A DNA stretch of 64,000 nucleotides from Dehalococcoidia bacterium (lineage in GTDB: Bacteria; Chloroflexota; Dehalococcoidia; DSTF01; JACRBR01). The stretch lies in NCBI GenBank assembly GCA_021731085.1, contig JAKFYB010000001.1:101266-165265 (forward strand), written 5' to 3'. Below are positions 25,777 through 36,604 of the stretch, piece after piece. The position numbers were made by a program, and so were the translations under genes. Position 1 is the first letter of the stretch, and each line of letters opens with the position of its first letter. The notes below the pieces were generated by a model that was not told the DNA's origin, did no database searches, and was given only the letters and a program-made list of their open reading frames with translations.

Positions 25777-26190
25777 GTCCCGCAGCCGCGCGATGTGGCC
25801 CGCCGTCCCCCGGCTGTGCAGTCGTCGCCTGTCGTCCGACCCACTAGAGGTCACTACTAGTCATAACGACCGTTCCCTGGCAGAAATGCAAGGCCAGCAC
25901 GCGCGATCTGGCGCCAAATCCAACTGCTGACGCTTGTAAGCCAAACAGGTTCGGCTCACGCGGCCGATACTTCTGACGGAACACCCGCGGAAGTGAGTGC
26001 CGCAGGAGAAGTCTCGCTTACGCGTAAGAAATCCGGGCCGTAACAGGCTGTCAAGTACGGCGTTTGGATAGCTGTCAAGGGCTCAATGTCGGCTGCGATG
26101 GGGCATCGGTACGCAGACGTGAGCGGGAGTGACGTGATGGGGACTTCAGCGAACAGCCGCATCCCGCGCAAAGGGCGTCGCCGCAAGGGC

Positions 26191-26577
26191 ATGCGCCGCG
26201 GCGAGATCGGCCAGAGCCTGGTCGAGCTGGGCATGATGCTCCCGCTGATTCTGATCCTCGTCATTGGCGTGATCGAGGTGAACAGCGCACTCAACGCGTA
26301 CATCACCGTCGTGAACTCCGCCCGAGACGGGGCGCGTCTCGGCTCGAAAGGCGCCGCCACAGACGCGGAGATCCGAACCCTGGTTCGCAAGGACCTGGAG
26401 CGGCTTCCGCAGGCGACGGTCGATGGCGACATCACCATCTCGCACCCGACCGTCAACAGCGTCGCAGCCATCAAAGTCATGTCCTGTTACGACCACGAGA
26501 CGATCTTGCAAGTCGACTTGCTGATGCCAGATACGTTCCGCATCTGCTCCGACACGACGATGCCCGAATTGAATTGA
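26191..26577 (+). CDS. TadE-like pilus assembly protein (minor pseudopilin)
   Basis: N-terminal GQSLVELGMMLPLILILVIGVIE TadE-family TM segment. Start moved to MRRGE. Confidence 0.6.
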   Translation: MRRGEIGQSLVELGMMLPLILILVIGVIEVNSALNAYITVVNSARDGARLGSKGAATDAEIRTLVRKDLERLPQATVDGDITISHPTVNSVAAIKVMSCYDHETILQVDLLMPDTFRICSDTTMPELN

Positions 26578-26585
26578 GGTAGCTC

Positions 26586-27884
26586 ATGAAGAAGTTGCTC
26601 CTCCGTTTCCACCAGCAAGAAAACGCGCAGGTCCTCTGGATCTTCGCGCTGCTCGCGTTCATCCTCATCGGCCTGATGGGACTTGCGACCGACATCGGCC
26701 GCATCTATGTAGCCCGCGCCGAACTTGGACGCTCGGTCGATGCCGCGGCCTTGGCCGGCGCGAAACAGCTCCCGGACATCGTTGCTGCCGACGCGAAGGC
26801 GCGGTCGTTCATCACACAGAATGAACCAAACGCCAACGTGAACGTCGAGGTCTACCCGAACGTCCCGGCACAGCAAGTTGAGGTGCGCGCGGTCAAGACC
26901 GTCAACACCGTCTTCCTTCGCGCGCTCGGTGTCGGCAGCGTCGCCGTCCGCAACCAGGCGACCGCGGGATTCGGCGTTATTCCTGTGGACGCGTACCTGA
27001 CTATCGATGCCACTGGTTCCATGCACAACGGCTGCAACGCGGCCGAAACCAGCACAGGCGGTGTGTGTCCCATCAAGGAAGCCAAGGATGGGGCGACGGC
27101 GTTCATCAACACGTTACTCGTCACCGGCAGCACCAACACCAATACGGTTGTGGGCCTCGGCGCATTCCGTGGTTGCTACAACCTTCCACGGAACAACACG
27201 CGATGCGTTGATGCGACCGCGCCGAACTCCCTGATCACAAACCTGACCAGCAACAAGACGACGTTGACCGCCGGCGTGAGCGCTATTCATGCGATTGGTG
27301 GACCGGGACAGGACACGAGTGGTTCGGGGACGAACATCTGCCAGGCGCTGAAGAAGGCGCAAGATGTCCTCTTCAACTACGGAGGCGGCCACACAGCGTC
27401 GAACACACAGCGCGTCATCGTGATCCTTAGTGACGGTGACAACGTGTACAACGCCGACCAGGTGAACGCGAGCAGCCCGCAATCGCCCGAGAGTCCTTGC
27501 CGGCCAACAAGCCCTTCGACCAATGATGGGGATGTCGGCACGAGTTGCCTAAACAACACACAAACGCAGGAAGCGAAAGTGGACTTGATGTCGCACAACA
27601 TGGCGACGACTTTGAAGAACGCGACGAATAACGTCGAAATCTTCGTCATCGCCTGGAGCGTGTGCGGTGGAATTCAGTCGTCGTCAACGCTCTGCAACAC
27701 AACGGGTATTGGATCGACCGGGACCGGTCACCCTGACAGCACAGCCGACCACCGCCTGCTGAAGTGCATCGCGTCGTCTTCGCCTGGGACGAACGACCAC
27801 TACTTTGAGACGGCTACGGCGTCCGAGCTCCCAGGCATTTTCCAGCAGATCGCGCAGCAAGTGTCATTCAGGTTGATTAAGTGA
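26586..27884 (+). CDS. TadG-like Flp pilus-assembly protein with vWA domain
   Basis: N-terminal TadG-like TM segment (LWIFALLAFILIGLMGLATDIGRIY) and a vWA region (YLTIDATGSM ... VIVILSDGDN). Confidence 0.6.
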   Translation: MKKLLLRFHQQENAQVLWIFALLAFILIGLMGLATDIGRIYVARAELGRSVDAAALAGAKQLPDIVAADAKARSFITQNEPNANVNVEVYPNVPAQQVEVRAVKTVNTVFLRALGVGSVAVRNQATAGFGVIPVDAYLTIDATGSMHNGCNAAETSTGGVCPIKEAKDGATAFINTLLVTGSTNTNTVVGLGAFRGCYNLPRNNTRCVDATAPNSLITNLTSNKTTLTAGVSAIHAIGGPGQDTSGSGTNICQALKKAQDVLFNYGGGHTASNTQRVIVILSDGDNVYNADQVNASSPQSPESPCRPTSPSTNDGDVGTSCLNNTQTQEAKVDLMSHNMATTLKNATNNVEIFVIAWSVCGGIQSSSTLCNTTGIGSTGTGHPDSTADHRLLKCIASSSPGTNDHYFETATASELPGIFQQIAQQVSFRLIK

Positions 27885-28375
27885 TGAAGACCATGTTGAA
27901 CTGGCTCAAGGGGCGCGGAGAATACGGACAGACGCTGGCAGAGTTCGCCATGCTCATGCCCATCATCACGCTCGTCATCTTTGGTCTGGTTGACATGTCT
28001 CGCGCAATGCAGGCGTACGTCACCATCCAGGAGGCCGCGCGCGATGGCACGCGGTACGCGGTGACCGGTCGCATCGACTGCGACAACGTCGCGGTGCAGA
28101 ACAGGGCCAACTGCATTGAGGAAGCCGTGAACAATCGGACCGACCATCTCGCGAACACGGACTCGATCACTGTGTCGACGAGGCACTGGAACTTCCCGTT
28201 GTACGCCGACCCGGCCACCGAGAACGACCCTGGAACGCAGTGCGACGCCGTAGAAGTAGAAGTCCACTACACCTACGAGCCGATCACGCCGGTGTTCCGC
28301 CAGCTCGTGAAGAACAGCGTCGGCATGAGTGCGAGGGAGCGTCTTGTGAACGAACCCTACGGCACCTGCGAATAG
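27881..28375 (+). CDS. TadE/TadF-like pilus assembly protein
   Basis: GQTLAEFAMLMPIITLVIFGLVD TadE-family N-terminus; overlaps the tadG-like stop. Confidence 0.6.
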   Translation: MMKTMLNWLKGRGEYGQTLAEFAMLMPIITLVIFGLVDMSRAMQAYVTIQEAARDGTRYAVTGRIDCDNVAVQNRANCIEEAVNNRTDHLANTDSITVSTRHWNFPLYADPATENDPGTQCDAVEVEVHYTYEPITPVFRQLVKNSVGMSARERLVNEPYGTCE

Positions 28376-28467: not shown

Positions 28468-28496
28468 TTGACACTAGATAGGGCCGGTAGTACATT
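28468..28496 (+). promoter_or_regulatory. Candidate sigma70-type promoter for the cytochrome bc operon (TTGACA-17-TACATT)
   Basis: Perfect -35, 17-nt spacer and a 4/6 -10 hexamer, ~55 nt upstream of the first ORF of the operon. Confidence 0.4.
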
Positions 28497-28550
28497 CCCG
28501 TTTGAAACAGGATTCACAATCGGTCCGCCAACGGGCGGGCGAGGTGGACG

Positions 28551-28721
28551 ATGCCCGTTCCTCTGTTGAACTTCTTCGGCGGACTCGCGGACTACATCGA
28601 CAGTCTGTTCAACTGGCCGCCCACACCGCAGTCGGACCAGGGCGAGCTGATCTGGGTGGGCGCGACGATGGCGCTCTCGCTGGGCTTGATGGTTGTGCTC
28701 GGCCGTTGGTGGCAGAGGTAG
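28551..28721 (+). CDS. Small single-TM membrane protein, possible accessory subunit of the bc complex
   Basis: 56-aa ORF absent from the track (below the 60-aa cutoff). GAGGTG RBS 5 nt upstream and a C-terminal hydrophobic helix, directly ahead of cytochrome b. Confidence 0.3.
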   Translation: MPVPLLNFFGGLADYIDSLFNWPPTPQSDQGELIWVGATMALSLGLMVVLGRWWQR

Positions 28722-28739
28722 TCGAGGGAGGCAGGCCAG

Positions 28740-29495
28740 ATGGCGCGCACGGAACAGCCGAGGGGACCAGGGTTCGGCGACTTCCTGTACGACAAACTGT
28801 TTCATAACTATATCTGGCGGTCGATCTTCCGCTCCGGCTACCCCAACACCCCCCGCAACCAAATGCTGGCCGTCGCGACCAGCGTGTTCCTTCACCTCCA
28901 CCCGACGCGCATCCACAAGACGCACGTCAAGATTACGCACACCTACTGCCTCGGCGGGCTGAGCTTCTTCATGTTCCTGGGGCTCACCGTCACCGGCGTC
29001 ATGCTGATGTTCTACTACGTGCCGTCTGTCGACCGCGCGTACACCGACATCGCAGCGCTCGAAACGAACGTGCGCTTCGGCATGCTAATCCGCAACCTGC
29101 ACCGCTGGATGGCGCACGCGATGGTCATCACAGTGTTGCTGCACATGATGCGCGTCTTCTACATGGGCGCCTACAAGCCGCCGCGCGAGTTCAACTGGGT
29201 CGTTGGCGTCATCCTGCTCGTGCTCACGCTGCTGCTGTCATTCACGGGCTACTTGTTGCCTTGGGACCAGCTCGCGCTCTGGGCTATCACCGTCGGAAGC
29301 AACATTGCCGGCGCCGCTCCGACGCTCGGCGCGCAGACGCGCATTGTCATGCTTGGTGGCATTGAGGTCGGCCCCGGGACGCTGATCCGCTTCTACACAC
29401 TGCACGTCATCGCGCTGCCGCTGCTGGCCGCGATCTTCATGTCGGTCCACTTCTGGCGCATCCGCCGCGATGGCGGACTCGCGCGACCCCTGTAG
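28740..29495 (+). CDS. Cytochrome b6-type subunit (cytochrome b N-terminal domain) of a bc complex
   Basis: Four-helix cytochrome b core with conserved heme-ligand His positions ([11 protein letters not shown]..., [10 protein letters not shown]). Confidence 0.85.
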
Positions 29496-29519
29496 GCAAC
29501 CGGGAAAGGAAGAGGGCAC

Positions 29520-30677
29520 ATGGCCATCATCACCCGCACCCCACAGGGCTCGAAAGAGACCGTCCGCCAGAAGCGCGAGCGCGATCAGGAGCTGCTCGTC
29601 TGGCCAGACCTGGTATTCGTCGAGTTCATCTGCGCGCTGCTGTTCACCATCACGTTCGTGGTGCTGTCGGTTCTCGTCGACGCGCCGCTTCTGAACAAGG
29701 CAAACCCGAACATCACGCCGAACCCCTCGAAAGCGCCGTGGTATCTCCTGAACCTGCAGGAATTGCTGCTGCACATGGAGGCCGGTCTCGCCGGCGTCGT
29801 CGTGCCGACCATCGCGCTCGTCGTGCTCATCGCCATGCCATACATCGACCGCAGCAACGAAGGTCAAGGTGTGTGGTTCGGCACAAAGAACGCCGTCCGC
29901 ATCACGCTCTTCGCGTTCACGTTTGCTTCCCTCTACATCACAGCCTGCATCCTCTGGGATGATGGCGCTCATGTGAGAGTCTACGAACAGGCATCCGTCA
30001 CCTTCGGGTTTAGAGAAGAGGGTGACGAGTGGACATGGCCGGGTGAAATAAATCCGTTCCGCGAAGACGATCCCGACGACGGAGCGTTGTCCTTCCTGAA
30101 CCCTGCCGAAGGCGCGCTGCTTCCGATCTGGGACTTCATCTTCTTCGAGAACCGCGTTGCCATCCGGGAGACGTGGACGTGGAGTATGCCTGTACCCATT
30201 CAGCCCGGTGATGGCGACCACGACGGCCGGCTGGACTGGCCGCAAGACTTCGCGAACGTTCCGATTCCACTGAACGGCACTTGGATTATCACGTTCGACG
30301 AGCCGGAGTGGATGCCAGGCTGGATGCAGCGCCTGTACTGGTACGACCGGCACCTCGATGTTCCGGAGATTATGGCCATCTATGTGCTGCCGTTGACAGC
30401 GATCATCGCTGGCATCGTGATCATGCTCGTGACCCTCTTCAAGCTGGGTTGGGCGACGACGGTGCGCGACGCGTTCATCGCGATGTTCACCGGCTTCATG
30501 CTGACCTATCTTGCGCTGACCCTGATCGGCGCCGCCTTCCGTGGCAAGGGCCAGGAGTTGGTGCCGCCGACTCACGTCCCGAATCTCGAAGAATTCCCGA
30601 ACATTTCGCGCGAGGTCGAACCGCCATCGCAGTACGCACTCTTGGATGCGCAAGTTAGCGCGCGGGTAGAGGTCTAA
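29520..30677 (+). CDS. Cytochrome b C-terminal domain (subunit IV-like), unusually extended to 385 aa
   Basis: PEWY-region equivalent (KAPWYLLNLQE) and subunit-IV-like TM helices. A ~130-aa Trp/acidic-rich soluble insertion and extra C-terminal TM helices follow. Confidence 0.7.
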   Translation: MAIITRTPQGSKETVRQKRERDQELLVWPDLVFVEFICALLFTITFVVLSVLVDAPLLNKANPNITPNPSKAPWYLLNLQELLLHMEAGLAGVVVPTIALVVLIAMPYIDRSNEGQGVWFGTKNAVRITLFAFTFASLYITACILWDDGAHVRVYEQASVTFGFREEGDEWTWPGEINPFREDDPDDGALSFLNPAEGALLPIWDFIFFENRVAIRETWTWSMPVPIQPGDGDHDGRLDWPQDFANVPIPLNGTWIITFDEPEWMPGWMQRLYWYDRHLDVPEIMAIYVLPLTAIIAGIVIMLVTLFKLGWATTVRDAFIAMFTGFMLTYLALTLIGAAFRGKGQELVPPTHVPNLEEFPNISREVEPPSQYALLDAQVSARVEV

Positions 30678-30683
30678 GGCACG

Positions 30684-31406
30684 ATGGCTGACGAAGAAAC
30701 ACCAAAGGAAGAAGCGGCGTCAGAGCCTGCACCGAAGCCGGCGAAAGAAGCGGCGCCGAAGGCCGAGAAGGCCGTCGTTGCCGCATCGGATGCGGGACAG
30801 GTCGTCGCCGCGGGCGCTGGTCCGCCGGCCATTGTCGTCGTCCAGCCGCCACCGACGGGATTCACGGCGCCGGAGGTCACGCGTAGGCGTGTGCTTGCGA
30901 TTGGTTTCTGGGCGGGGCTGCTGGGTGTTCTCGGCGCGATTGGTGCGACGTTCCTCAACTTCTTCTACCCACGCGGACTAACGGGCTTCGGTACCGCCAT
31001 TGCCGTCGGCTCGCTCGATCAGCTGGCGCCGGGCGGCTTCATTCGAAGCCTGGAGGCGAAAGCATGGGTGATGCGCGTTGGCCCGCAGCAGGCGCCGCGC
31101 GAAGGCGCCCCTGACGGCTCGATCATCGCGCTGTACCACGTCTGCCCCCATCTCGGCTGCACCGTTCCCTGGCGGCCAGAGTTCCCATTCTCGGACCCAC
31201 GCAACGGCGGAGAAGTCTATACCGGCTGGTTCCGCTGCCCGTGCCACGGCTCCACGTACAGTTTTACCGGCGTGCGCGTCTTCGGTCCCGCACCGCGTTC
31301 GATGGACGTATTCGAGGTGACGATCGAAGACGGCGCGATTATCGTGAACACGGGCGCCATCACGAAGGGCACCACAGACAATCCTTCTTTGGCGATCGAG
31401 CCCTAG
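30684..31406 (+). CDS. Rieske [2Fe-2S] iron-sulfur protein
   Basis: CPHLGC and CPCHGS Rieske boxes, a TM anchor, and an Ala/Lys/Glu/Pro-rich low-complexity N-terminus. Confidence 0.85.
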   Translation: MADEETPKEEAASEPAPKPAKEAAPKAEKAVVAASDAGQVVAAGAGPPAIVVVQPPPTGFTAPEVTRRRVLAIGFWAGLLGVLGAIGATFLNFFYPRGLTGFGTAIAVGSLDQLAPGGFIRSLEAKAWVMRVGPQQAPREGAPDGSIIALYHVCPHLGCTVPWRPEFPFSDPRNGGEVYTGWFRCPCHGSTYSFTGVRVFGPAPRSMDVFEVTIEDGAIIVNTGAITKGTTDNPSLAIEP

Positions 31407-31430
31407 CAGCGACGGGGCGATGAGGAACGA

Positions 31431-32654
31431 ATGAACACCAGCAAGCAGATCATGATCATCGTGTCGCTGCTGTTCCTGTCGCTCATCGCGACTGGCGCCT
31501 ACACGATGTGGGATCCCAATCGCGCGGAGGAAGCGAAGGAGCGCCAGATCGAAACGGCCGTCTGGCGTGGTGCATTCCTCTTCTCGCAGAACTGCATCGC
31601 CTGTCACGGGGACGCTGGTGAAGGTGGCCAGCGCAGCAACCGCCTTCGCGAAGCGCCTCCCCTCAACCGGCCCGACCTCCAGGGGCGCGAAACCGAGGGT
31701 GGTGAAGTCAGCGAGCCCGCGAAGGATGCGGCGTTTGATACCGTCTTCAACACCATCAATTGCGGCCGCGTCGGCAAGGCGATGCCGACGTGGGGACTCG
31801 ATCATGGTGGCGTCCTCAACGCCGAGCAGATACGCCAGCTCACTCTTCTCATCACGGAAGGCACCGGCTGGGAGGACTCAGAACACTTCGCCATCGAAGG
31901 CTTCCCGGAAGGCGATGTCCACGGCTACGGCGAAGTGCCGTTCGAGCTCGAGGAGCCGATCGCCGAAGCCGACACGGAGATCGCCCTGAGCGACGTGTCG
32001 ACGCTGGCAGTTGGCGAGCGCCTGCAGTTCGCGGAGGAGCTGGCACTCATCACGGCCGTCGATCCTGAAGCGAACACGGTCACGGTCGAGCGCGGCCTGG
32101 GCACAACCGCTGCTGCCGATCACCCGCTCGACGTCGATCTGCTCAAGCCGCCCGTTCCGCCGGACCCGCCGCCGGTGACCGGCGCCGCGTGTGGTCAGTT
32201 CCCGCAGGAAGTCGCGACGGCCGTGCCAGACCCGCCCGGAGTTGACCTGACCATCACGTCCTCAGGCCTCGCGTGGAACAAGACTGAGCTGTATGCACTG
32301 CCTGACGTGCCGCTGACGCTCACGCATCAGAACGAGGACGCCGGCCAGCAGCACAACTGGGCCCTGTACGGGACGGAAGAGGGCGCGATCACAGGCGAAG
32401 GCCTCATTGCCGCCACCGAGATCGAAGTAGGACCGGGCGAGCAGTTCCTGAACTTCGGACCTCTGGCTGTCGGCGAGTACTACTACCAGTGCGACGTCCA
32501 CCCGCAGATGAACGGCTTCGTGATCGTCGCGCCGCCGAGCGCCGATGCTCCCGCTGCTGTACCGCCCGCGACGGATGGTGAGGCGACGGCCGTTCCCGAT
32601 GGTGCTGCGCCGCCTGCGGAAGAGGCGCCTGCGGAGGAAGCTACTGCGCCTTGA
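31431..32654 (+). CDS. Membrane-anchored mono-heme cytochrome c fused to a C-terminal cupredoxin (type-1 copper) domain
   Basis: N-terminal TM helix and CIACHGD (CxxCH) motif. The C-terminal domain has the HNWALYG and GEYYYQCDVHPQMNGFVIV blue-copper ligand pattern (His...Cys-x2-His-x2-Met). Confidence 0.7.
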   Translation: MNTSKQIMIIVSLLFLSLIATGAYTMWDPNRAEEAKERQIETAVWRGAFLFSQNCIACHGDAGEGGQRSNRLREAPPLNRPDLQGRETEGGEVSEPAKDAAFDTVFNTINCGRVGKAMPTWGLDHGGVLNAEQIRQLTLLITEGTGWEDSEHFAIEGFPEGDVHGYGEVPFELEEPIAEADTEIALSDVSTLAVGERLQFAEELALITAVDPEANTVTVERGLGTTAAADHPLDVDLLKPPVPPDPPPVTGAACGQFPQEVATAVPDPPGVDLTITSSGLAWNKTELYALPDVPLTLTHQNEDAGQQHNWALYGTEEGAITGEGLIAATEIEVGPGEQFLNFGPLAVGEYYYQCDVHPQMNGFVIVAPPSADAPAAVPPATDGEATAVPDGAAPPAEEAPAEEATAP

Positions 32655-32755
32655 CGCAGTGCATGGGCCGAATCTAGACTCTCACTCGCAGGACGCGTTT
32701 TGGATACGCGTCCTGCCTGTTTGAACGAAAACACACTCAGCGGAGGTCGACGACT

Positions 32756-33043
32756 ATGGGCGCACAGGTAGGCAAGCGGTACATCGCGGCAAGTGGCGCC
32801 GAGCTCATCGTCACGAAGGGCGGCGACGGCGCGCTGCAGGACGGCGACACGCCGCTGAACATCAAGGAAGACGGCCCGCCTGCATCCGGAAGCGACGCTG
32901 GCGAGGTGCAACTCGGCAAGCGCTACTCGTCGGCGGATGGCGCTGTCGAGGTGCTGTGCATCAAGCCGGGAAAAATCGAACTCAAGTACGAGGGCGCGGC
33001 GATGGAACTTCAGGCGCCGAAGGTGCTTCCGAGCGCTGACTAG
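32756..33043 (+). CDS. Hypothetical small protein with internal duplication
   Basis: 95 aa; VGKRYIAASGAEL is echoed by LGKRYSSADGAVEV. Confidence 0.3.
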   Translation: MGAQVGKRYIAASGAELIVTKGGDGALQDGDTPLNIKEDGPPASGSDAGEVQLGKRYSSADGAVEVLCIKPGKIELKYEGAAMELQAPKVLPSAD

Positions 33044-33123: not shown

Positions 33124-33537
33124 CTACTTCGCCCGCATGCGGTTGTTCTTCGCATTGTGCTCCACCTCTGCCAGCCCCAGCGCCTCCAGCACAGGCGGCA
33201 CGTACATCCCGAAGCGCCCGCGCAAGCCCTTCTTGATTCCGTACCAGCCCTTCACGGGGTTCTTCTCCGACCGCCCCCATGCTTCGACGGTGCCCTCGGC
33301 CGCCGCCTTCTGCTCGTCCGCGCTGCCCAGCGGCATCCAGTCGCCGTGCTTCTTCAGCATCGCCTGCAGGTCGTCGATCGCGCGCAAGTGGTAGCGCAGC
33401 TGCGTCTTCCCGACCTGCACGACGAGCGCGGGCGGATCCGTTGCTTCATCCCGATGCGCTTCGTACGCCGATGTACCCGGCGGCGTGGTCAGCTGCCAAG
33501 GCGATTCCTTCGTCCCTTTTCCTTTGACGCTCGCCAT
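33124..33537 (-). CDS. Hypothetical protein
   Basis: ORF with reasonable codon usage; start assumed at MASVKGK. Confidence 0.3.
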   Translation of the reverse strand: MASVKGKGTKESPWQLTTPPGTSAYEAHRDEATDPPALVVQVGKTQLRYHLRAIDDLQAMLKKHGDWMPLGSADEQKAAAEGTVEAWGRSEKNPVKGWYGIKKGLRGRFGMYVPPVLEALGLAEVEHNAKNNRMRAK

Positions 33538-33629
33538 CGTGCCTCCCGACCGCAAGTTGGGCGGGCGCTCTGGCCCGTCGCAGAAGTGACTTCCGAATAT
33601 ATAGTGACCGGTCGCTTGCCGCCAAGTCC

Positions 33630-33684: not shown

Positions 33685-34551
33685 CTACGTAGCCGCGTGC
33701 GGCGACTCCACGTCGCCTGTCGTCGGCTCTGGGTGTTCGGCGAGCGCTTCCTGCTCTGGCGTTGCACCTTTGTGGCGGCGCGCGTACGGCATCGCGATCG
33801 TCTTGCCGGGCTGTTTCGGGTGTTCCCGGCTCGCGACCTCCACGCCGAAGACGTCACGCAGCAGTTCGGGCGTGAGCACTTCGTCCGTGGGTCCGCTGCC
33901 GACGATGCGCCCGGCGCCCATCGCCAGCACGCGGTGGGCGTACAGCGCCGCCAGCCACAGCTCGTGCATCGATAGTACGACAGTTACGCCATGCTCCTTC
34001 AGCTCCGACAGCAGATCCATGAGCTCGAACTGGTGCGCGAGGTCCAGGAAGGCCGTCGGCTCGTCGAGCAGCAACACATCCGGCCGCTGGGCGAGCGCCA
34101 TCGTCAGCCACGCGCGCCGCATCTCGCCCTGCGAGAGTTGCCGCAGTGGCCGCGCGCGAAACCCGGCCATGTTCATCGCGCCGAGCGCCCACTCGACCGC
34201 GTGCGTGTCCTCGGCAGCGTTGCGCGAGAGCAGCGACTGGTGAGGGTAGCGCCCTCGATATGCCAGCTCTTCCACCGTCAGGTCTGGGAGCCCGTCGCCG
34301 CCCTGGCCGAGAAACGCCAGTCTCTTCGCGACGGCACGGTTCGGTAGCTGGTGCAGCACTTCGCCGTCGAGCAGCACGACGCCGGTGGTTGGCTTGAGAA
34401 TGCGCGATAACACGCGTAGCAGCGTCGACTTTCCGGCGCCGTTCGGCCCGATCAGCGCCGTGATACGACGCTCCTCTATGACGAGATCGACATCCTCGAT
34501 GTGAAAGCCGTGGCCGTATCCGGCGGATAGCGCGCGTGCCTCGAGCCTCAT
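33685..34551 (-). CDS. ABC transporter ATP-binding protein (iron-siderophore/cobalamin FepC/FecE type)
   Basis: Walker A GPNGAGKST, LSQGE signature and Walker B LLLDEP, plus a ~40-aa C-terminal extension. Confidence 0.85.
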   Translation of the reverse strand: MRLEARALSAGYGHGFHIEDVDLVIEERRITALIGPNGAGKSTLLRVLSRILKPTTGVVLLDGEVLHQLPNRAVAKRLAFLGQGGDGLPDLTVEELAYRGRYPHQSLLSRNAAEDTHAVEWALGAMNMAGFRARPLRQLSQGEMRRAWLTMALAQRPDVLLLDEPTAFLDLAHQFELMDLLSELKEHGVTVVLSMHELWLAALYAHRVLAMGAGRIVGSGPTDEVLTPELLRDVFGVEVASREHPKQPGKTIAMPYARRHKGATPEQEALAEHPEPTTGDVESPHAAT

Positions 34552-35570
34552 GTCTTCGCCCTGACCAGATACAACAGGAACGGCGCGCCCACGACGGCCG
34601 TCACGATCCCGAGCGGGATCTCCGATGGCGCGACGATTACGCGCGCAAAGAGATCGGCATAGACAACGAGCGACGCACCAAGCAGCGCTGACAACGGGAT
34701 CAGCTTGCGGTGATCATCGCCGATGAACGTGCGGCAGATGTGTGGGATCACGAGACCGACGAACGCGACCATACCCGCGGCCGCAACCGACGCACCGGCC
34801 AGCAGCGCCGCCGTCGCGACGGCGAACACGCGCGTGCGCTCGACGCTCAGCCCCAATGACTGCGCTGGTTCATCGCCCAGGGCGAGGATGTTCATGTTGC
34901 GCGCGAGCAGCATGGCTGCCGTGATTCCCACGACCGCGTACGGCCATGTCACCTGTAGGTCGTCCCAGCCGCGCCCGAACAATCCGCCCGCGAGCCACGA
35001 GAGTGCACTCTGGGTACTGAGGTTCGACGTCACAAGCATCGCGTTGATGCCCGCAGTCAGCAGCGCCGCGACGGCGACGCCGGAGAGCGCGAGCCGCACC
35101 GGAGACACGCCCCCGCGCCACGACATGCCATATACAAGCGCCGCCGCAAGGAACGTGCCAAGAAACGCGATCGGCGTCAGCCACGCTGGTCCGATGTCGG
35201 CCGAGATTTTGATCGCGATGCTCACCGCAAGCGCACCGCCGGCCGTAATGCCGAGCACGGTCGGGTCGGCGAGCGGGTTGCGTGTGACGCCCTGCAGCAG
35301 CGCTCCCGCCACCGCAAGACTGGCGCCGACGACGACGGCCAGCAGCACGCGCGGCAGGCGGATCTCCCAGACGACGACGCGGTCGAGCGTCGTTCCGTTG
35401 TCGAGCAGGCCATCGATCACTTGCAACGGGGAGAGGGTCGTCGCACCGAATGACAGCGCCGCGAACACGGCCAGCACTAAGAGCAGCACCGCGAAGCCCC
35501 ACACCGCCACCTCGCGCCCGGAGTTCGAGCGCGAAGGCGTAGCGGTTGGAGTAGTGGCGTGTTGCTGCAT
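34548..35570 (-). CDS. FecCD-family ABC permease
   Basis: Nine or ten TM helices with the FecCD conserved region; overlaps the neighbouring genes. Confidence 0.85.
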   Translation of the reverse strand: MQQHATTPTATPSRSNSGREVAVWGFAVLLLVLAVFAALSFGATTLSPLQVIDGLLDNGTTLDRVVVWEIRLPRVLLAVVVGASLAVAGALLQGVTRNPLADPTVLGITAGGALAVSIAIKISADIGPAWLTPIAFLGTFLAAALVYGMSWRGGVSPVRLALSGVAVAALLTAGINAMLVTSNLSTQSALSWLAGGLFGRGWDDLQVTWPYAVVGITAAMLLARNMNILALGDEPAQSLGLSVERTRVFAVATAALLAGASVAAAGMVAFVGLVIPHICRTFIGDDHRKLIPLSALLGASLVVYADLFARVIVAPSEIPLGIVTAVVGAPFLLYLVRAKT

Positions 35571-36604
35571 CAGTTGAAGATGTCCGGGTAGAGAAGCTTC
35601 GTCAGGATGTCGAGGCCTTCGCCCGCGCGCGGCCCCGGCGCTTGCAGGAAGATCGCGGCGTCGATCTCACTCACGCGTTCGTTGGTGACCGCGGGCACGC
35701 TCGCCCACGCGGGATCGGCCGCCAGCGACTGACTGATCGTCTCGCCCGGTGCCGCCGTGATCGCCAGCACGACTTCAGGCGCCTCGCCGATGATCGTCTC
35801 CAGACTGAGCTTCGCGTAGCCGGGGAACGGCGCGTTGCTCGGCTGTCCCGCAGCAACATTGTCCGCGCCCGCAAGCCGCGCGAGGTCGCCCACGTACGAC
35901 TCCGGCAGCGCGACGAAGAAGTCAGTCGGCGTGCCGTTGAGGATGACGACCTTCGCCTTCTCCGCAGGCAGCTTGCTCTCGATATCCGCGAGCTGCGCCT
36001 CAAGTGCTGCAGCCTGCGTCTCGCCTTCGCCCGTGTTCAGCGCCTGGCCGATGAGCCGATATGCCGTCAGTACGTCCTCGAAGTTCTCTGCGCCGATGTA
36101 GAGCACCGGTATGCCGAGCGCCTCGAGCTGTCCAGCAAGCTGCACCTGCAGCACGCTGTCCGCGACGATGAGGTCGGGCGACGCGCCTGCCAGCAACTCA
36201 ACGTTCGGTTGGTACGCGGAGCCGATGTCCGTCGCCGAGAGCGCTTCCTCCGGGAAGTCCACGGACGCCGTGCGCGTCAGGCTCGTCTCGCCGACGGCGT
36301 ACACGAACTCGACCGTCGTCGGGCTGATGGCGGCGATCGCGGCCGGTTCGGCGTCGATCTTCACGCTGCGGCCAGCCATGTCGGTCACCGTCAGCGGATA
36401 CGTCGTCTCCTCGTCTGCGGCTGCCGTCGGTGAGGTCGATGCGCCCGTCGTCGCTTCGGCGGTCGCGACCGGGGTTGTGTCGTCCGCCGTATCGTCGTCG
36501 TCGCTACATGCTGCTGCCGAGATCAACAGGGCAGGCAGTGCAGCGGCGACGAGCAGGCGCTTCCAGGTCAGGGATGTCCTCATTCGGGTGATGCTCCTCC
36601 ACAT
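35570..36604 (-). CDS. ABC substrate-binding lipoprotein (class III, siderophore/cobalamin-binding)
   Basis: Lipobox LLISAAACSDD and PBP-fold length. Operon with the permease and ATPase. Confidence 0.75.
   Translation of the reverse strand: MWRSITRMRTSLTWKRLLVAAALPALLISAAACSDDDDTADDTTPVATAEATTGASTSPTAAADEETTYPLTVTDMAGRSVKIDAEPAAIAAISPTTVEFVYAVGETSLTRTASVDFPEEALSATDIGSAYQPNVELLAGASPDLIVADSVLQVQLAGQLEALGIPVLYIGAENFEDVLTAYRLIGQALNTGEGETQAAALEAQLADIESKLPAEKAKVVILNGTPTDFFVALPESYVGDLARLAGADNVAAGQPSNAPFPGYAKLSLETIIGEAPEVVLAITAAPGETISQSLAADPAWASVPAVTNERVSEIDAAIFLQAPGPRAGEGLDILTKLLYPDIFN

Follow-up and report, generated by a model that had tools for sequence, protein, structure and literature searches.

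What kind of electron-transfer complex is encoded by an operon whose cytochrome b and Rieske subunits are of the b6f type and whose last gene joins a cytochrome c to a blue-copper domain, and by which route would electrons leave it? The question is raised by positions 28551-32654 of a stretch of 64,000 nucleotides (nt) from a Dehalococcoidia bacterium (contig JAKFYB010000001.1), which is called the window below and in which all coordinates are counted. Read from the sequence, these positions form one tightly spaced operon of five genes for a Rieske/cytochrome b complex of a Dehalococcoidia-class member of the Chloroflexota. The reading we favor, at a probability of about 0.7, is that of a b6c-type Rieske/cytochrome b quinol oxidoreductase (complex III) that runs in the forward direction and passes electrons from heme c via a type-1 copper center to a terminal acceptor.

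All five genes lie on the forward strand, at 28551-28721, 28740-29495, 29520-30677, 30684-31406, and 31431-32654, as an earlier note made from the letters of this DNA had placed them; they encode proteins of 56, 251, 385, 240, and 407 amino acids (aa), are separated by gaps of 18, 24, 6, and 24 nt, and each has a Shine-Dalgarno-like GAGG or GGAGG 5-10 nt upstream of its start. The gene order given in the earlier note (a small transmembrane open reading frame (ORF), cytochrome b6, subunit IV, Rieske protein, cytochrome c) is borne out by these ORFs and by the Pfam search it had proposed, in which PF00033, PF00032, PF00355, and PF13442/PF00034 match the expected proteins. Since this arrangement recurs in dozens of independent genomes, it is more than a product of chance.

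The 407-aa product of the last gene begins with an anchoring membrane helix (aa 7-25), which is followed by a heme c domain of class I (aa 40-156); both are encoded at 31431-31898, and PF13442 and PF00034 cover aa 46-136. After a spacer it continues with an auracyanin-like type-1 copper (cupredoxin) domain (aa 254-366; 32190-32528), which starts at a conserved Cys254 and is recognized by its ligands, by Foldseek, and by phmmer, and it ends in a disordered tail rich in Pro, Ala, and Glu (32529-32654 including the stop codon; predicted local distance difference test score, pLDDT, <50 for aa 376-407), which is variable or absent in homologs. In an alignment of 35 homologs with identities down to 45%, the heme-binding residues C55, C58, H59, and M118 (of M118-P119) are invariant, as are the copper ligands H308 (of H308-N309), C354, H357, and M360. 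The motifs QQHNW ... GEYYYQCDVHPQM, cited in the earlier note, are present in the protein.

The AlphaFold model of this protein has a mean pLDDT of 83.9 and exceeds 90 across the C-terminal domain, whose best Foldseek matches are the auracyanins 6kol, 2aan, and 1qhq (E 3e-10 to 4e-7, target TM-score 0.60-0.70, probability 1.00), followed by amicyanin and short-loop azurin variants; phmmer aligns the domain to auracyanin A (E 7e-5), placing QQHNW on QQHNW and superimposing the Cys/His/Met loop. The earlier note had described a membrane-anchored CxxCH cytochrome c fused to a type-1 copper domain, and had named missing copper ligands or a non-cupredoxin fold, to be checked by structure prediction, as grounds for giving the description up; because the four ligands are invariant in 35 sequences and the best fold match is auracyanin, the description stands, along with the domain matches that support its heme part. 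The C-terminal domain is, on its sequence and modeled fold, a type-1 copper cupredoxin of the auracyanin/amicyanin kind and a predicted copper binder, and the complex would carry its own blue-copper acceptor. The membrane-tethered auracyanins of Chloroflexus and Roseiflexus are its best match in both structure and sequence, belong to the same phylum, and share its ligand set and QQHNW motif; an auracyanin, however, is a separate protein, whereas here the domain is part of a fusion, and the complex for which auracyanin is described as the usual acceptor is Alternative Complex III and not one of the Rieske/cytochrome b type (PMC5826079). The copper loop also differs: in auracyanin A it reads CTVPGHYPLM, whereas here it is a short C-x2-H-x2-M loop of amicyanin length, spaced like the CTPHPFM loop engineered into azurin in 2fta, which we take to be the amicyanin loop.

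The nearest solved relatives of the heme c domain are the QcrC cytochrome cc subunits of actinobacteria (E 2e-5). QcrC hard-wires complex III in the actinobacterial bcc-aa3 supercomplexes, where its second heme passes electrons directly to the oxidase; like the protein described here, it is a membrane-anchored subunit with two redox centers, able to replace a soluble carrier in a monoderm-type cell. In the present protein, by contrast, the second center is a type-1 copper and the anchor is N-terminal. Membership in the QcrC family was considered and rejected, as the protein has a single CxxCH and scores 29.6 bits against a cut-off of 200 with the QcrC model NF050122.

The fusion is widespread in relatives. 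It has 194 detectable cluster representatives, all named ones from Chloroflexota/Dehalococcoidia bins, and many of the homologs are already labeled "cytochrome c family protein/plastocyanin" by JGI. A survey in which one genome per species was scanned yielded 80 loci, with a Dehalococcoidia-type set that includes L002-L061; throughout these, wherever the contig extends, the order small ORF - b6 - long subunit IV - Rieske - cytochrome c is kept, in about 55 Dehalococcoidia genomes including that of the cultured Tepidiforma flava (L044). Across the Dehalococcoidia loci b6 is 77-96% identical and the other subunits 30-70%. The last subunit combines one CxxCH with a type-1 copper loop (CDVHPxM, CDYHPxM, or CNVPxHYxxGM) in 51 of 61 Dehalococcoidia-type loci and is cut by contig ends in three; in six more (L021, L024, L039, L041, L042, and L061) a second CxxCH domain replaces the copper domain, and the one of these that was checked with Pfam has two cytochrome c domains. 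A true diheme version of the kind seen in QcrC thus exists in sister Dehalococcoidia lineages, and this exchange of copper for heme at the same position is the strongest argument for the copper domain as a one-electron carrier in a high-potential chain. Outside this set, the Limnocylindria-like loci L070, L071, and L080 also join a cytochrome c to an auracyanin-type loop. The comparative genomics proposed at the outset therefore finds the same fusion and gene order across the Dehalococcoidia loci, and these sequence comparisons make the design a feature of the aerobic-type Dehalococcoidia as a class, one not confined to this genome.

Two further arrangements were observed in the same searches. 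Eight loci from Anaerolineae and 'Chloroflexia' bins (L066-L068, L072, L074, L075, L077, and L078) have the order Rieske - b6 followed by a subunit IV fusion of ~700-750 aa with seven CxxCH. Among P0270-P0392 there are many proteins of 300-450 aa with two or three tandem copies of the same cupredoxin domain and no cytochrome c part; these proteins may serve the same lineages as carriers, free or anchored, with several copper sites.

Between the two redox domains of the 407-aa protein lies a β-rich spacer domain of about 80 residues (aa 165-245; 31923-32165), modeled by AlphaFold2 with pLDDT >90 as four to five strands. Its TVTVERGxGTT..H motif is conserved in the alignment of 35 homologs, and no Pfam model matches the domain at E values up to 10. 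The spacer occurs in one copy here, in two to five copies in 450-770-aa variants of this operon subunit, and 21 and 11 times, respectively, in the giant surface-type proteins P0297 and P0313 (7472 and 4059 aa); the latter, the only one of the two that was domain-scanned, also has FG-GAP, cadherin-like, and Big_5 domains. In Tepidiforma, five LysM repeats occupy the spacer position: the orthologous subunit of T. flava (NZ_CP115149.1, L044:6986-8848) has 621 aa, with a cytochrome c domain, the five LysM repeats, and a C-terminal CDYHPPM copper loop. As LysM repeats bind peptidoglycan, those in the T. flava subunit would tie the respiratory complex to the cell wall.

Such modules bear on whether the copper domain is a redox carrier at all. 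Cupredoxin folds have been reused in non-redox roles, and spacers built from surface-protein repeats or LysM hint at a structural or cell-wall role of the whole extension, so that the domain might serve, free of copper, for docking or structure, or might supply copper as a chaperone when the oxidase is assembled; electrons would then in truth leave the complex from heme c. We consider this quite improbable because the four type-1 ligands are invariant across the family, together with the amicyanin-length loop; the upstream His is kept in 322 of 336 copper loops, and in sister lineages the domain is swapped for heme c, which is another one-electron carrier.

In addition to the metal ligands, two cysteines of the last subunit are invariant: C111, which lies in TxxCGRxG seven residues ahead of the Met ligand, and C254, which lies in ACGQ where the second redox domain begins. 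A pair of this type is found in every variant, regardless of the spacer and of whether the second domain binds copper or heme. Exactly this CGR + CGQ pair is present beyond the metal ligands in 138 of 152 complete members with two redox domains, and most of the others have the pair plus another one. From this co-conservation, C111 and C254 probably form an interdomain disulfide, which would staple the second redox domain to the heme domain and leave the spacer looped out.

The membrane core resembles that of b6f complexes. Cytochrome b6 (28740-29495; PF00033, 2e-45) is a split cytochrome b of four helices, lengthened at its N-terminus by a conserved stretch of 45 aa, and its nearest solved relatives are the b6 subunits of b6f complexes (E 4e-50). 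The His residues of LHRW, LLHMMRV, TLHV, and SVHF align with the bL and bH heme ligands in 1q90 and 6rqf, and TYCLGG aligns with FYCIGG/FYCLGG, the heme-cn Cys35 motif of b6f b6, which makes it a predicted attachment site. The split type proposed for this protein is accordingly confirmed by the profile match, the four His ligands, and the heme-cn Cys.

Among NCBIfam models, b6 matches best with NF040969, the equivalog for ExtP of selenite/tellurite reduction, at 292.3 bits and thus just above the cut-off of 290. Automatic NCBIfam annotation of b6 would on this basis present the operon as an ExtP/ExtQ-type selenite/tellurite reduction module. The companion subunit does not follow, since subunit IV reaches only 52.7 bits against the ExtQ cut-off of 150, in a match limited to the first 137 of its 385 residues (the ExtQ model has 134 positions and matches only the subunit IV core); moreover, no multiheme cytochrome or other Ext gene was found near the operon when the window and the neighboring genes were scanned, and Rieske and cytochrome c-cupredoxin subunits are present instead. 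With ExtQ below its cut-off and a gene context lacking an Ext cytochrome cluster, ExtP/ExtQ membership is rejected as highly improbable. That b6 passes for ExtP while ExtQ fails is probably due to an ancestry in common, in the clade of cytochromes b with an APWY quinol-oxidation motif described below. A b6 that barely exceeds the ExtP cut-off means that automatic annotation could mis-name a respiratory gene as a selenite/tellurite reduction protein.

Subunit IV departs further from the b6f pattern. Its core, with helices E, F, and G (aa 1-149; 29520-29966), is matched by PF00032 at 1e-7 over aa 60-142 of 385 only; in a profile of 32 homologs, aa 28-131 fall on helices E-F of cytochrome b and on b6f subunit IV, and the quinol-oxidation (Qo) motif APWY (aa 72-75) stands opposite PEWY. 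Within SKAPWY (aa 70-75), K71, A72, and W74 are invariant in the 32 homologs, of which at least 90% have P73 and Y75; relative to P-E/D-W-Y, the motif thus has Ala in the first position and Pro in place of the acidic residue. An acidic Qo residue, which APWY lacks, is considered important when quinol is oxidized. Five helices are indicated by hydropathy and by the AlphaFold model alike (aa 31-49, 88-106, 128-146, ~281-309, and ~315-344), the last two of which are additional to the core and are followed by a 40-aa outer tail (30360-30677). The 132-aa loop between helices 3 and 4 (aa 147-278) has 26 D/E, 8 K/R, and 10 Trp and corresponds to an acidic, Trp-rich insertion (aa 150-280; 29967-30359). 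As the K/R-rich N-terminus of subunit IV lies inside, the APWY loop and the insertion are predicted on the outer (p) side, to which the Rieske head, the cytochrome c domain, and the copper domain are likewise assigned by predicted topology.

The insertion matches nothing in Pfam at E values up to 10. It is nevertheless not junk, to judge from its retention in the 32 homologs, where W173, L238, W240-P241, P248, P250, N252-G253, W268, and Y273 are invariant, as are R316, F323, G325, Y330, T334, G337, and F340-R341-G342 in the extra helices. Long subunit IV homologs of 370-390 aa are plentiful in Dehalococcoidia metagenome bins. The claim that the 385-aa subunit IV is over-long, with a Trp-rich and acidic insertion of ~130 aa and extra transmembrane helices, thus agrees with composition, hydropathy, and model.

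By its Qo motif the complex is assigned to the "APWY clade", a group of split cytochromes b defined by Kao and Hunte 2014 (PMC4122944); Chloroflexi and delta-proteobacteria are among the members of the clade, and none of them had been characterized in vitro or in vivo. The operon shares with this clade the split cytochrome b, the APWY motif, and the phylum, and its b6 scores best against ExtP of Geobacter; the extended subunit IV, the small subunit, and the cytochrome c-cupredoxin subunit are not described there (PMC4122944).

The Rieske protein (30684-31406; PF00355, 7e-9) consists of a low-complexity tail (aa 1-60), an RRR twin-arginine translocation (Tat) motif, a helix (aa 70-88), and a cluster domain of the b6f type; its best solved relatives are b6f Rieske proteins (E 1e-11), to which the CPHLGC and CPCHGS boxes align. 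The unusual N-terminal tail to which attention had been drawn is indeed there, as the first 60 residues, rich in Ala, Lys, Glu, and Pro; it is alignable only in closer relatives and, because it precedes the Tat motif and the membrane helix, is assigned to the cytoplasm.

Compared with b6f and firmicute-type b6c complexes, the operon has in common a split b6, subunit IV, and Rieske protein, the heme-cn Cys, a Qo motif in the ef loop, and the b6f type of the Rieske protein; small single-helix subunits accompany the core of b6f as one may do here. It differs in having APWY, not PEWY or PDWY, in a subunit IV of five helices and a 132-aa outer domain as against three helices, in the order b6-IV-Rieske-c without a cytochrome f, and in a small subunit unrelated in sequence to PetG/L/M/N.

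From these parts a forward mechanism can be proposed. Quinol would be oxidized at the APWY Qo site formed by subunit IV; one electron would pass from the [2Fe-2S] cluster of the Rieske protein, itself presumably Tat-exported, to heme c, which would hand it to the tethered type-1 copper, and from the copper it would reach a terminal acceptor, while the other would travel through the b hemes and heme cn. The copper domain would then play the part of the second heme domain of diheme cytochrome cc subunits, with the C111-C254 disulfide holding the heme c and copper domains together, and the terminal acceptor would most likely be the CuA center of a heme-copper oxidase encoded elsewhere. Chloroflexota are not known to have an outer membrane, which gives a rationale for tethering the carrier: a tethered carrier would suit a cell with no outer membrane to retain soluble ones.

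Several points weigh against this reading or parts of it. APWY-type complexes may run in reverse, as suggested by Kao and Hunte (PMC4122944). A search of the window, and of the 80 related loci up to 7 kb from the operon, found no signature of a heme-copper oxidase, CuA, or multicopper protein. The PF13473 cupredoxin match (aa 332-366) stays below threshold on the 407-aa protein alone, at 17.7 against 27 bits. As to the disulfide, AlphaFold2 gives pLDDT <50 at C111-M118 and at C254, leaving it without structural support, and a stalk of one to five spacer domains looped out between disulfide-linked cysteines is geometrically unusual.

If the complex operated mainly in reverse or otherwise non-canonically, the cupredoxin/heme c subunit would take electrons from an external high-potential donor and these would be pushed uphill to the quinone pool; the model for such a path is the rusticyanin-cytochrome c-bc1 branch of Acidithiobacillus, driven by the proton-motive force. 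A Qo motif that lacks the acidic residue, the proposal just cited for the clade, a b6 whose closest NCBIfam model is the Geobacter ExtP, from a context other than that of a respiratory oxidase, and the lack of linkage between operon and oxidase genes (in the window and the 80 loci) are all consistent with it. It is nonetheless unlikely, and is rated lower because the operon is conserved as a housekeeping-like unit across many Dehalococcoidia, Tepidiforma included, because genes for a donor-oxidizing enzyme are not adjacent (the neighbors are genes for a Tad pilus and for an ABC importer), and because the exit subunit of sister lineages is like the diheme cytochrome cc of the forward-running actinobacterial complexes. 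Tepidiforma is an aerobic heterotroph.

The forward-running complex may also have a small subunit. The first gene (28551-28721), preceded by GAGGTGG 6 nt upstream and likewise annotated as a gene in the contig's public NCBI entry, encodes a 56-aa protein with one helix (aa 33-51); given its acidic N-tail and K/R-containing C-end, it is predicted to have a single helix with the N-terminus out and the C-terminus in. It has no match in Pfam (E up to 10) or NCBIfam, the PetG/L/M/N families included, and the earlier description of a single-helix ORF with a strong ribosome-binding site and no assignable family is thus accurate. A likeness to PetN (SLSLVVWGR and SLGLMVVLGR) was considered and set aside, as no profile matches. 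The C-terminal motif EL..V..T...S...MV..G.WW.R-stop is conserved in 33 loci, with the stop 4-35 nt (mostly about 20) ahead of the b6 start; this constancy of position supports the suggestion that the ORF is well placed to be a small subunit. The ratio of nonsynonymous to synonymous substitution rates (dN/dS) is 0.2-0.9, below 1 in all computable pairwise comparisons, though over only 30 codons.

The conserved upstream peptide could also have no part in the complex and serve instead in regulation or in some unrelated membrane function: homology to PetG/L/M/N or any other family is not detectable, dN/dS is noisy on so few codons, and the N-terminal half of the ORF is poorly conserved. Yet position, frame, stop, and a 25-residue helix motif ending in WW-x-R are kept in 33 genomes in which the other subunits are at 40-60% identity, the ribosome-binding site is strong, and the predicted topology is like that of small b6f subunits, which also present a single helix with the N-terminus outside. 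A role outside the complex is therefore rather unlikely, and by its conserved place and topology the 56-aa protein is a candidate subunit.

The operon is bounded by plausible signals. A σ70-like promoter candidate, TTGACA-17-TACATT (28468-28496, forward strand), lies 55 nt before the first gene and is a consensus match only (10 of 12 positions in a consensus scan). Downstream of the last gene, a stem-loop on the same strand (32688-32716) is a possible terminator; read from the sequence it has a G+C-rich stem of 10 bp and a loop of 9 nt, and in the computed fold an extra closing U-A pair makes this 11 bp and 7 nt. It is the main element of an 81-nt fold (-27.9 kcal/mol, z = -3.1) and is not a textbook intrinsic terminator because its T run is short. 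Directly upstream (26086-28375) are three Tad-pilus-like genes (TadE, Tad/vWA, TadE) with no evident functional tie; downstream are an ORF of 95 aa without a Pfam family (32756-33043) behind a promoter-like site (32651-32680), and then, both on the opposite strand, a DUF6855 gene (33124-33555) and a FecCD-type ABC importer (33685-36604). As these flanking genes are unrelated, 28468-32716 is treated as a single self-contained operon.

Blue copper proteins serve Rieske/cytochrome b complexes elsewhere, in archaea: in Sulfolobus SoxM it is the sulfocyanin SoxE, and in haloarchaea the halocyanins, that take the place of a cytochrome c as carrier from the Rieske/cytochrome b module to the oxidase. 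In these systems the copper proteins are separate and without heme c, whereas here heme c and copper share one bacterial polypeptide; some long Dehalococcoidia variants show a weak SoxE match at the copper end. The components thus belong to known kinds; members of the family are numerous in public metagenomes, and part of them already have automatic annotations. A search of open-access full text found no description of a cytochrome c-cupredoxin subunit in a Rieske/cytochrome b operon, of a five-helix subunit IV, or of the small subunit, and the reviews of bc-complex evolution that were consulted, including PMC4122944, make no mention of the three. Beyond the earlier note, the analysis adds the APWY motif and clade, the near-universal Cys pair, the variable-copy spacer, the interchange of copper and a second heme, and the class-wide spread.

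Whether these features amount to a distinct class of complex III in Dehalococcoidia-type Chloroflexota ('b6c-Cu') can be answered only tentatively, and we regard it as possible, at less than even odds. Such a class would have a hard-wired exit of disulfide-stapled heme c and copper; the loop between the cysteines, of β or LysM repeats, would tie the complex to the cell wall or set its reach to the oxidase; and subunit IV and the 56-aa peptide would form a docking scaffold on the outer face.

Rieske/cytochrome b complexes have a central place in both respiration and photosynthesis, and no part of them has been replaced in evolution as often as the high-potential exit subunit, which may be cytochrome c1, cytochrome f, diheme cytochrome cc, or a tetraheme cytochrome. 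None of the present findings overturns the Q-cycle framework. A fusion of heme c and blue copper that trades places with a diheme subunit in sister lineages would add another solution for the exit, and a clean natural experiment on heme versus copper carriers; it also points to a way in which a cell lacking an outer membrane might be spared the loss of soluble carriers. As the cultured Tepidiforma has the same type of operon, the question of how the APWY clade works is open to experiment, and the 'b6c-Cu' class, if true, would through Tepidiforma provide the first experimentally tractable enzyme of the clade.

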